Of a DNA stretch of 64,000 bases, positions 45,597 to 50,752 are shown one piece after another. This DNA comes from Hydrolagus affinis. Its lineage: Eukaryota. Location: contig JAAILG010001175.1 of the NCBI GenBank assembly GCA_012026655.1, positions 1-64,000 of the forward strand, written 5' to 3'. The notes beneath the pieces were generated by a model. The model searched no databases and had not been told where the DNA came from. It saw only the letters and a list, made by a program, of their open reading frames with translations. Position 1 is the stretch's first letter. Every line of letters begins with the position of its first letter. The position numbers and the translations under genes are program-made.

Positions 45597-46045
45597 CAAC
45601 AACAAAAAATTGTATTTATATAGCACTTTGCACATCGGAAGGATTTCCCAGGGAACTGGAGGTTTGATTTGGGAGTGGTGGGGGCCAAGGTGGGTGGTGG
45701 TGGAGTGATGATGACAAGGGTTTGGTCAAAGATGTAAATCTTCGGACTGGCCTTTAACAAGGGGATAGAAGTAGTGAGTCAGAGGAGTTGAGTTCCAGAG
45801 AGCGGTGGCAGAAAAACTGAACGCTCACCTGTTAATGGTAGGATGGGGGAGATAAAGCAGGCTGCTGCTCAATAAGCAAAGGGAGTGGCCAGGTCAGTAG
45901 GATTGAAGGAGGCTGCAGAGGTGCAAGGTCAGGTGGGGAAAGACCTTGGAAGGATATGAAGGTGAGAATAAGGATCTTGAATTCTATCATTTGGGGCGGG
46001 TGGGGATACGCAGTGAAACCCAGCAAGGTTGGGGTGATGGTTGTG
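45597..46045 (-). mobile_element. L2 LINE 3' fragment in intron 4
   Basis: IEFKILILTFISFQGLSPPDL motif (L2 RIxFKILxLxxKxLxGLAPxYL) and a (CAA)n tail at the left end. Confidence 0.8.
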
Positions 46046-47411: not shown

Positions 47412-47580
47412 CTACTACATAATCTCCAAACCCAATGGTGCTGAGAGTGATGAAGGAGTAGTAAATGCCCTCTCTGTAGGACCAGTCCTCCATTGTACTG
47501 AAGACCAGTGGTGGTATCAGCAGGAAGACCAGCACACCAGCCAACAGTGAGAGTGAGAACGCTAAAACTTTCACTCTTTT
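47412..47580 (-). CDS. KCNK16: KCNK16-like coding exon 4 (TM3, P2 filter TIGFG; 169 nt)
   Basis: Acceptor tttcag|AAA, donor GTA G|gtgagt. KRVKVLAF...FLLIPPLVFSTMEDWSYREGIYYSFITLSTIGFGDYVV-G. Confidence 0.96.
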
Positions 47581-47760
47581 CTGAAACCGAGAAATATAAT
47601 TGAATAGTAAAACCCATTGCGTTTGATCTAGCTCCTGAAAAGAATTTTTTCAAGTAATTGCTGCAAAAATACTGTATTTGGTTGCGTATTTTGCAGGTCA
47701 ATGCATCTGACAATCATAATGATAATTCTTACATTTGTCTTATCTAGAATCGAGAATTGT

Positions 47761-47816
47761 GTCTGAATATTTACAAGGTGATAAATATCACCTAGTGCCA
47801 TCACAACGGTGGCCAC
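47761..47816 (-). repeat. Local duplicate of the exon-2 3' end, donor and start of intron 2 (source 49227-49282), lying in intron 3
   Basis: Ungapped alignment, 49/56 identical; reads ATVVMALG versus ATVVTTIG in the source. Confidence 0.92.
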
Positions 47817-48073
47817 TAGGTGAGCTCACTAACCACTATGCTGCAGGACTCCACGGTTTGCACAGAGCAATGAAAGTCAAACAGCTATGAAATCAATGAC
47901 TAATTTTATCTGGGGGATTGTTGGTCATGGCATTCAGACATTGCATTGAATCAATGATGGAACATAGCAATGGTTCCGATATAAAATGACAATGGCCAAG
48001 ATTTGTATACATTTTGCTAACCCCAAATGTGAATTGGCTTTTTGATGCAATATTTGTAAAAATGTAAGTGTAC

Positions 48074-48240
48074 CTCCATCAAACATTTGTTGGTTAGACA
48101 CGTGCGCATTTTATCCGTGTAGGAGGATAAGTGTTTCCCAACTAGCCCCAGAGCGATCAAGTTGAGCGGGATTCCAAACAGTGCATAGAACACACAAAAG
48201 ATCTGGCCTTCAGCTGTGCTTGGGGAAAGGTTTCCATAGC
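48074..48240 (-). CDS. KCNK16: KCNK16-like coding exon 3 (P1 filter GYG, TM2; 167 nt)
   Basis: Polypyrimidine tract then ccaaag|GC, donor GAG|gtacac. GYGNLSPSTAEGQIFCVFYALFGIPLNLIALGLVG...; phases 1 and 0 fit the neighbouring exons. Confidence 0.96.
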
Positions 48241-49257
48241 CTTTGGGAGAAAAAGGAGAAGCAAATAGTAATAGCATTTAACACAGTGCCTGTACATATC
48301 AAAGTGTTTTACATTAATCCCTGTTAAGTAAGTGACTCTAGGCAAAAACGGCTGCTGATCTGCATACAGCCACAAAGTATTATGGACATGAAGGATCAAT
48401 TTATTTGGAATATTGTTGCCTGGGACCCCGGAGAAACTCTCTTCTCTTTTCGAATTGTATCCTGGGATTTTTAACATCCACCTGAGTCAACTGGACCTTG
48501 TTTTAATACCTAATTGAAATCATGGCACCTCCAATAGTACAGCGGTCCTCCAACTCTGGACTGGATAATGCGCTTTATCAAATACAAGGATTATTATTAT
48601 TATCCTGAGACTTGAACCCAGAGCCTTCTAACACAGAGGTACAAACGCTGCCAATAAACCTAGGCTGATACCAAATTGCTGCTCTTTCGTATCTCTTAAG
48701 GGTGGCCTTAATCATGTTGTACACTACAGATCTTTATTGATGATTGAGAAGGAAAATCATGCAAATAAAATTGCTATTACTCACTCAACATTTGTGTACA
48801 TACCAACTGGAATTGAACAATGAAACACTTTTACACTGACCAGAATGCAGCTCGTTATTCAATTCTTGATTTTATCTTGTGTGCTAGGTTTGTAAAATAA
48901 AAGTCCCATGATGATAGACTTTCAGTTTGGCTTTGCAGCCTAGCACATTCCAAAATAATAAGAAATCCTTTCATTTGATACAGTGCTTCATCACGTAATC
49001 AAGACATCCCAAAGCACTTTACAGGGTATGATGAAGGTGGTCTGATTGTTGAATTTTGCGGTAGTTAACTTGTGCTTAGCATTGTTTTACAAAACAATAA
49101 GCCAATAAGCAATTTCAGCTGGAGAATTGGTGACCAGTGCATGGGAAGAAACTCCCTTCTCTGATACTTGTTTGATTAGGTTAAGGGTTGGCCTTGACAA
49201 GCACATACTTTACACTACATTTCGTTGTCTGAATATTTATATTGTGATAAATCTCAC

Positions 49258-49378
49258 CTATTGTCGTCACAACGGTGGCCACAAAAAAGAAAGAGCTGCC
49301 AAAATCCCAGTTACTGTGAGCAGTCATGGAAGAATTGCCGATAGGGTTGACTCCATGTTTCAAGGCTTCAATCATGAC
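49258..49378 (-). CDS. KCNK16: KCNK16-like coding exon 2 (cap to pore helix 1; 121 nt)
   Basis: Acceptor ctgtag|GTC, donor ATA G|gtgaga. VMIEALKHGVNPIGNSSMTAHSNWDFGSSFFFVATVVTTI-G closely matches TALK-1 SNWDFGSSFFF..TVVTTIG. Confidence 0.95.
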
Positions 49379-49750: not shown

Positions 49751-50551
49751 GAAGTAAATGTGGAAAAAATACATTTTTTTGTTCACTGAAACCAACACGT
49801 TTTTACACAAGCAAAATTGTTCGTTTTCATCACTAGTTGTCCCATTCTTGGTACCCAGAATTAGAAAAGGTTACCAGGCAGGATGGTTGAGGATGCTGGC
49901 CTCAATTAAAGAAATAGCTCGATATTGTATGAGCTATTGTAATTCTAAAAGAATTAGATCAAATGGATTGAAGGACCATCTTCATTCAAACAGCCTCCCC
50001 TTAAGCTTCAGTAATGTTCAATCACAAACATTCAATAGTGAACACATTTCCCTCTTAGTTTTTAAAGCTCTCCAGCTTCAAAGGTGCATTGAATAGGATC
50101 AATAAGAATGAGGTGCAGACTTGGTTATCAAAGGAAACACACAGGGCAAACACAGAAGATTGGGGAGGGGGAAGGAAGTACGCTCCCGGACTCCGAATGT
50201 ATCTTAGACGAATTGTGGACAATCTGATGCTTTATAAGAATTGTGGATGATTTGATTTCCTCCCGCAAAGTTAGCAACTTTACAGATAATGGAATTGTGA
50301 AGGCCAATTTTTTTTTGCAAAGGTATTTTACAGTCAGGATTGGGACCCTTCCTTCTCTGTTTTTTTGTTCCTCCTCTGCGGGATTCTCTCTTTGTAGCCA
50401 AAACGAAAAGTTGTTACTAGTACTTCCTAAAATCAGGGAACTTAAGATTGCTTGTTGCTTAAATAAACTTTACAAATATGAATGGTCATATTACAACTCT
50501 CCAAATAACAACACAAACACACACACACATACAGAGATCAGAATTACTTAA

Positions 50552-50752
50552 CTTCACAAACTCTTCCAACGCCTCTGCAGTGAGACAAGTATAATTTTCC
50601 AGGAAGTGGAATTTCTCTTTCCACACCACAGTCTTGGTTTTGTCTTCTTCTTGTAACTCCAGGGCCTGGAACACAGCGGCTCCGATCAGTAGGTAAGCCA
50701 GGTAGATGAGGATGAGGAGCACTGTAGTGCTGGGGCGTTGACAGAAGGACAT
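50552..50752 (-). CDS. KCNK16: K2P channel KCNK16/TALK-1-like, coding exon 1 (N-terminus, TM1, cap helix; 67 codons)
   Basis: gtcaccATG Kozak context. MSFCQRPSTTVLLILIYLAYLLIGAAVFQALE...KFHFLENYTCLTAEALEEFVK matches TALK-1 TM1 and the ENYTC cap motif. The 3' boundary is set by homology and phase 0; the donor there is non-canonical (TT). Confidence 0.9.

Follow-up and report, generated by a model that had tools for sequence, protein, structure and literature searches.

An intron of a potassium channel gene holds a second copy of the end of the gene's own pore exon, splice donor included, and the copied donor lies inside a predicted hairpin. How did this arrangement arise, and was the hairpin built by later mutation, by selection, or by the event that placed the copy there? 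We examined the locus within the stretch of 64,000 nt analyzed here (the window).

Host gene

The window contains, on its minus strand, a five-exon two-pore potassium channel gene, the product of which has two pore-forming Ion_trans_2 segments, as in a KCNK16/TALK-1-like K2P channel. The nearest named proteins are the "KCNK16-like" proteins of Callorhinchus milii and Scyliorhinus torazame (for C. milii, 81% over part of exon 1 and 90% over exon 2), and these hits point to a chimaera-like cartilaginous fish as the probable source of the DNA. The exact subfamily member is probably KCNK16-like, going by the names of the best source hits rather than by a tree. Exon 2 (positions 49258 to 49378), exon 3 (48074 to 48240; supported by junction reads), and exon 4 (47412 to 47580; covered by RNA reads) all lie on the minus strand, and intron 3 corresponds to positions 47581 to 48073.

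Several features of this gene are recorded here in their own right. At the end of exon 1 (50544 to 50560, minus strand), AAG/TTAAGT stands where the shark protein predicts the phase-0 boundary, a donor consensus but for the T at +1. With a GT located six bases upstream, the frame would be preserved and two residues lost, which is how the Callorhinchus gene model reads; either a damaged allele or a donor shift common to chimaeras could be the cause. Within exon 2 (positions 49324 and 49349), the window encodes threonine where organisms A and B and both outgroup proteins have serine, and organism B carries an in-frame 3-nt insertion in the same exon. Two contigs of organism B end at approximately 48000 to 48002 in intron 3, with ~450 to 520 unaligned letters each, suggesting a lineage-specific insertion.

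The copy and its source

The copy (47760 to 47816, minus strand) consists of the last 25 nt of exon 2 and the first 32 nt of intron 2. Its source (49226 to 49282, minus strand; true donor at 49257) is located 1,466 nt away in the same orientation. The sequence-only reading had described an ungapped match of 49/56; the match is indeed ungapped and proved to be one base longer, with 50 of 57 positions identical. The seven substitutions that it had listed (47774, 47776, 47777, 47787, 47795, 47798, and 47800) were all recovered, as was the change of the filter codons from TVVTTIG to TVVMALG. The duplicated donor (−3 to +6, 47786 to 47794, minus strand) retains its GT at 47791 to 47790, while +5 is no longer G.

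The three changes in the exon part are all nonsynonymous, and at these positions the two outgroup proteins have the filter motif or a conservative variant of it; thus, these three changes happened in the copy. Because G is the consensus base at +5 of splice donors, the change at 47787 also arose in the copy. The three sites in the deeper intron part (47774, 47776, and 47777) are not polarizable from the data here.

No second copy was found in the source genome among the matches listed (seven matches in one search, five of which were SINE heads, and one match in another). A paralogue was rejected as the source, given that no match closer than the exon 2 end was present among the genome matches listed, and a tandem repeat was likewise discarded, none being present at the locus. 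There was no Rfam match in 47600 to 48050 at an E value of ≤5. Among open papers, we found none that deals with this locus or with a hairpin made by template switching at a duplicated donor.

Flanking repeats and junctions

The copy is abutted by the 5′ head of a SINE (47818 to 47854, minus strand), which appears tRNA-like in our own reading of its sequence. This head stops after ~37 nt, and other genomic copies continue for >100 nt. The sequence-only reading had noted a third palindrome beyond the copy; it exists, but it is ordinary SINE sequence, as are six bases of an arm of the larger hairpin (stem 2, below), and another genomic locus has the same SINE stretch supplying both. None of 13 other SINE heads has the junction base found between copy and SINE (47817); they have C in seven cases, T in five, and G in one (the locus itself left out). 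Together, the SINE end and the junction base form an exact 8-nt reverse complement of the source-state donor, and two of three further source-state positions also pair. An exact inverted match of 8 nt was reached by 0.04% of the 127,070 57-mers of the window, and one to the 7 SINE nucleotides alone by 0.5%. The SINE may have read CTCGCCT at birth, as do 6 of the 13 other copies, in which case the inverted match would have been imperfect, a point against the repair patch proposed below. The divergence of the SINE head from the majority sequence (~4.4/35, from a biased sample) is similar to that of the copy (7/57).

An older interspersed repeat lies on both sides, with a remnant left of the copy (47716 to 47759) and the rest right of the SINE head (47857 to 47930). 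Its TGTCT(C/G)AA box coincides with the first bases of the copy: where the copy begins TGTCTGAAT, 10 of 26 repeat copies have TGTCTCAAA and 1 of 26 has TGTCTGAAA, and the homology at this left junction amounts to 7 of 8 nt for the commonest repeat form. Intact copies of the older repeat have ~90 to 108 nt between the anchors, which here enclose 119 nt of other sequence. Approximately 65 nt of the older repeat and the remainder of the SINE would therefore be missing at this locus, if other repeat copies represent the state before the event. On direct reading, neither a target-site duplication nor poly(A) was seen at the flanks of the copy, and microhomology was present at the junctions. The 22 nt left of the copy had no nearby exact template (nothing >10 nt in the window) and resemble the older repeat instead. 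In the same remnant, T>C at 47727 is common to runs X1 and X9, and X1 has a 4-nt insertion at 47729 (contig depth, <4).

A repair patch as the most probable origin

The copy, the cut-off SINE adjoining it, and the 8-nt inverted match are established, repeat sequence appears to be missing, and from these features we infer a sequence of steps. On this basis, the copy is probably an old, functionless DNA-repair patch templated by intron 2, and its donor-burying hairpin would have arisen at the repair junction. The SINE would have inserted into the older repeat, after which a break in these nested repeats of intron 3 would have cost the SINE its remainder and the older repeat ~65 nt. One end could have used the TGTCT(C/G)AA homology to prime synthesis on intron 2, over 57 nt. 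The new end would then have folded back and copied the donor in reverse; the resulting homology would have allowed joining to the SINE head (snap-back end joining) and left a stem with 11 of 12 bp paired. The seven later changes would most likely reflect ordinary decay, along with one or two short corrections of quasi-palindromes, and the element now seems to be drifting.

Also compatible is a two-step U-turn at the palindrome GTGGCCAC, with which the copy begins, combined with a 14-nt loss; it is not preferred, as it takes one event more than snap-back (a palindromic end of this kind is found in 0.9% of 57-mers). The deletion is read from intact repeat copies, and the deletion and the insertion could be separate events. 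Against a repair patch stand the facts that no run without the copy was seen and that the pre-event sequence was taken from other repeat copies.

The proposed steps resemble documented systems. In synthesis-dependent microhomology-mediated end joining of the snap-back type (PMC5728401), the inverted repeat is likewise composed of a primer repeat, one added base, and microhomology, and a deletion accompanies it, as is probable at the copy locus. Unlike those events, the copy is an old fixed scar rather than the product of an induced break, and it carries an extra 57-nt insert templated 1.47 kb away. Polymerase theta deletion-insertions (PMC5068794) also have a short imperfect templated insert, primed by short homology, in place of a deletion, which is a probable one at the copy. 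In that report, however, the worm inserts come mostly from ≤20 bp of the break and only 2 to 3% from >1,000 bp, against the 1,466 nt seen here. Class 2 templated sequence insertion polymorphisms (PMC5110952) are also germline patches without poly(A) or an evident target-site duplication and with microhomology and a microdeletion, the latter probable at the copy; here, in contrast, the template lies in the same gene, and the copy is present in all six covering runs.

Predicted folding of the copy

Two overlapping stems had been proposed over the copied donor, sharing TCACCT, and both were confirmed. Stem 2 (47788 to 47823; the outer arm, 47818 to 47823, is SINE, and 47817 is the junction base) is the dominant predicted hairpin. 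Its inner T·G pair exists on the plus strand only and is a C·A mismatch on the pre-mRNA. Because of this difference, the predicted fold is stronger on the plus strand than on the transcript (ensemble energy, −27.8 versus −23.8). Stem 1 (47776 to 47793) had been drawn with a 2-nt loop; the stem exists, but it has only 7 bp once a loop that can form (4 nt) is allowed, and it is minor in four of five folding windows (predicted occupancy, 0.00), reaching 0.67 in the widest (301 nt). This last value would count against a plain repair patch.

The claim that all seven changes strengthen the hairpins failed. On the transcript strand (47760 to 47830), the change at 47787 alone costs the unmutated copy +2.46 kcal/mol, and its reversion yields −2.74 kcal/mol, because a source-state pair between 47787 and 47824, which extends stem 2, is removed. 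Clear gains come from 47795 (−4.4 kcal/mol) and 47798 (−1.6 kcal/mol), while 47800 costs +1.03 kcal/mol alone yet helps by 0.8 in the context of the other changes. The changes at 47774, 47776, and 47777 barely shift the ensemble energy (≤0.31 kcal/mol); in a 117-nt window, 47774 and 47777 do help (−2.5 and −2.6 kcal/mol).

In a comparison of the copy with its source state, as had been suggested, the donor is not predicted to have been exposed before the substitutions. The unmutated copy, placed in the present flanks, is predicted to form stem 2 with a probability of 0.95 to 1.00 in four of five windows, and the mean unpaired probability of the donor over the five windows is 0.08 to 0.25, versus 0.02 to 0.20 for the present copy; that is, the donor is predicted to be equally buried in both. 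The true donor has a mean unpaired probability of 0.37 (one window). These models suggest that the main stem derives from the insertion junction and not from the substitutions. At the source, the exon 2 end (49258 to 49280) is a weak quasi-palindrome, and the minimum-energy structure has it folded across the true donor (z-score, +0.94; not unusual).

Hairpin bias of the substitutions

Seven random changes, either uniform or weighted under a model that we assumed (CpG, six-fold; transitions, 55%), were introduced into the source 57-mer within the flanks of the copy; all P values given for hairpin bias are uncorrected for the feature having been picked out of 64 kb. A lean toward pairing beyond chance, as the sequence-only reading had supposed, was found by most statistics, and it was modest (P = 0.002 to 0.05). 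The summed helix length through the changed sites gave P values of 0.002 (uniform) and 0.022 (weighted) (n = 20,000), or 0.006 and 0.030 with loops of ≥3 (n = 8,000). All seven changes lay on two stem registers, with one slip allowed, in 0.35% and 2.2% of simulations (6,000 each); without the slip, this test was weaker (P = 0.018 to 0.053). The ensemble energy of the transcript was reached in 5.2% and 3.8% of sets (n = 2,500), and that of the plus strand gave P values of 0.008 and 0.004 (n = 2,500). A "helix gain" statistic gave less support than the rest (P = 0.012 to 0.09 for the window allele and 0.06 to 0.25 for the base found at 47787 in relatives). With that base, G, the helix length test gave P values of 0.023 and 0.09, and the two-register test 0.029 and 0.10. 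Burial of the donor itself was often matched: 40 to 46% of 1,200 random seven-change sets buried it equally well.

The lean exceeds what plain decay of a repair patch would give, and it leads to a first alternative, in which most of the seven changes came from repeated short template switches (quasi-palindrome correction) once a plain duplication had occurred, with no function involved. Template-switch events are described as creating hairpins, and clustered substitutions that improve near-palindromes, without selection (PMC5453318 and PMC8794818). Six of the changes fall in two tight clusters, three within 4 nt and three within 6 nt (P = 0.018), and the two-register placement of all seven (P = 0.0035 to 0.022) and the plus-strand fold gain (P = 0.004 to 0.008) point the same way. 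No cluster, however, corresponds to one perfect reverse-complement tract: each needs a slip of 1 to 2 nt or leaves a mismatch, 47774 is separated by an A·A mismatch, and 47795 is on a different register from 47798 and 47800. The replacement is gapless relative to the source, and yet slips are required relative to the template. The longest perfect helices have 10 nt with one change and 6 to 7 nt with two, short of the fragments of ≥14 nt retained by the high-confidence filter of PMC5453318; that paper does not exclude events below the filter, and its section 6 states that matches under 12 to 13 bp are often due to chance. With G at 47787, as in three relatives, the two-register P values rise to 0.03 to 0.10. 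We regard template switching as the origin of most of the changes as unlikely, although it leads the alternatives; the mutational explanation first proposed is partly supported, by the two clusters and the lean toward pairing.

Variation among relatives and donor strength

Eight of 15 sequencing runs were examined (seven DNA runs and RNA run X14; X3 to X6, X10, X11, and X15 left out). The copy was present in all six DNA runs covering the site, with no presence/absence polymorphism among them; the seventh, X12, had no coverage of the copy. Six of the seven substitutions showed no difference among those listed in the relatives. Position 47787 is the same as in the window in X1, X7, and X9 and is G in X2 (organism A; depth, 31), X8 (organism B; depth, 72), and X13 (organism D; depth, 3), so that stem 1 has 6 bp in these three. 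The A of the window is plausibly the younger state, in line with the pattern at 49324, where the window has threonine and organisms A and B share serine with both outgroup proteins. In addition, the donor GT reads GG in X2 (47790; depth, 31) and AT in X13 (47791; depth, 3), and X7 (depth, 3) differs at 47794 (−3).

Two sites of the copy vary among organisms A and B; divergence in the surroundings (35 and 26 differing places in 1,861 nt, respectively) predicts ~1.1 and ~0.8 for the two organisms. Given its presence in all covering runs and variation at the surrounding rate, the copy predates these splits and bears no sign of constraint. Covariation, which had been put forward as evidence of selected structure, was not seen: no compensatory change was present among the differences listed, with the SINE arm unreadable in organisms A, B, and D because other SINE copies swamp the reads. 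All four variable sites of the copy fall within the 8-nt donor core (47787 to 47794; scan P = 0.005, or 0.10 with the two deep sites only), which neutral drift does not predict.

This clustering is central to a second alternative, in which the duplicated donor did mild harm, no copy could spread unless buried at birth, and later selection favored donor-weakening changes, including independent loss of GT. Selection against cryptic splice sites in introns has reportedly been proposed (PMC3245539). Scored by predicted pairing with U1, the copied donor was at birth as strong as the true donor (U1 duplex, −9.5 kcal/mol) and is now at −6.6 kcal/mol, and an exon 3 extension ending at the copy donor is predicted to meet a premature stop after ~18 codons. 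The only variation of the copy affects +5, +2, +1, and −3; the resulting P value for the 9-nt donor box is 0.0006 (0.025 with the two well-supported sites), although the box was chosen after the data were seen. Two of the four sites are on depth-3 contigs and may be errors, and a hairpin-linked mutation hotspot would cluster changes likewise. Moreover, the present copy donor ranks only 18th among 249 intronic GT sites by U1 duplex energy, and stronger decoys persist in intron 4, where the GT sites at 45828 and 47307 (minus strand) pair with U1 at −11.1 and −10.7 kcal/mol, above every annotated donor scored. We consider continuing selection against the donor improbable, ranking just after template switching.

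Close behind stands a doubtful combination of repair with later donor loss: fold-back repair would have delivered a strong donor already silenced in a hairpin, enabling its spread, and separate lineages would then have destroyed the donor independently (at +5, then by GT to GG in one and by GT to AT in another).

RNA reads were available from a relative, organism B, the GT of which is intact (27% of single-cell run X14; 13 reads at the gene). These reads cover exon 4, with four continuing into the end of exon 3 and six into exon 5; all four reads leaving the exon 4 acceptor toward exon 3 join exon 3 and skip the copy. None of the 13 lies on 47584 to 47804, a count from few reads of another species. 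This shows canonical exon 3-exon 4 splicing in the relative, and rare use of the copy donor is compatible with so few reads. An index search listed no RNA set, a result that says nothing about expression.

Two further explanations fared worse. The changes at 47774, 47776, and 47777 might have occurred in the source intron rather than in the copy, such that the true donor originally had stem 1 and later lost it. This would agree with the fact that, of the seven changes, the copy can be credited only with the three in the exon and the one at +5; the source (49226 to 49282), however, has no difference among those listed for organisms A and B, and we hold this to be quite improbable. Least credible of all is a selected RNA switch regulating a poison exon or an alternative donor of the channel gene: the stems exclude each other, stem 1 becomes the more occupied one in the X7 allele and also in the widest window, and candidate acceptors lie within the SINE head, but either stem buries the donor (so that switching would not expose it), the GT is altered in X2 and X13, no compensatory change is found among the differences listed, the fold is stronger on the nontranscribed orientation, and no RNA read falls on 47584 to 47804 in the small sample above. 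Selection for RNA structure, one of the two causes first proposed, is not supported, given a donor predicted to be buried beforehand, the 40 to 46% of random sets that match it, and core changes in relatives with no compensation among the differences listed.

Implications

Returning to the repair patch, the copy is a real feature that was partly misdescribed at first, and it is most likely an inert scar left by repair, of a kind already known, on which short template switches may also have acted. From the short-range switches of PMC5453318, it differs in having no perfect tract of ≥14 nt and in clusters that need slips. On the likeliest reading, the locus adds to the fossils of error-prone break repair, and its use is limited to marking lineages and to a warning: splice-site hairpins can come free with a repair mechanism and SINE sequence and are therefore no evidence of RNA function. 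If deeper data bear out the clustering in the donor core, the locus would offer a natural test, on a small scale, of whether selection acts against cryptic donors. Were the donor indeed silenced from the start, the copy would be a dated natural record of introns purging new cryptic donors, with repair chemistry as the initial shield.
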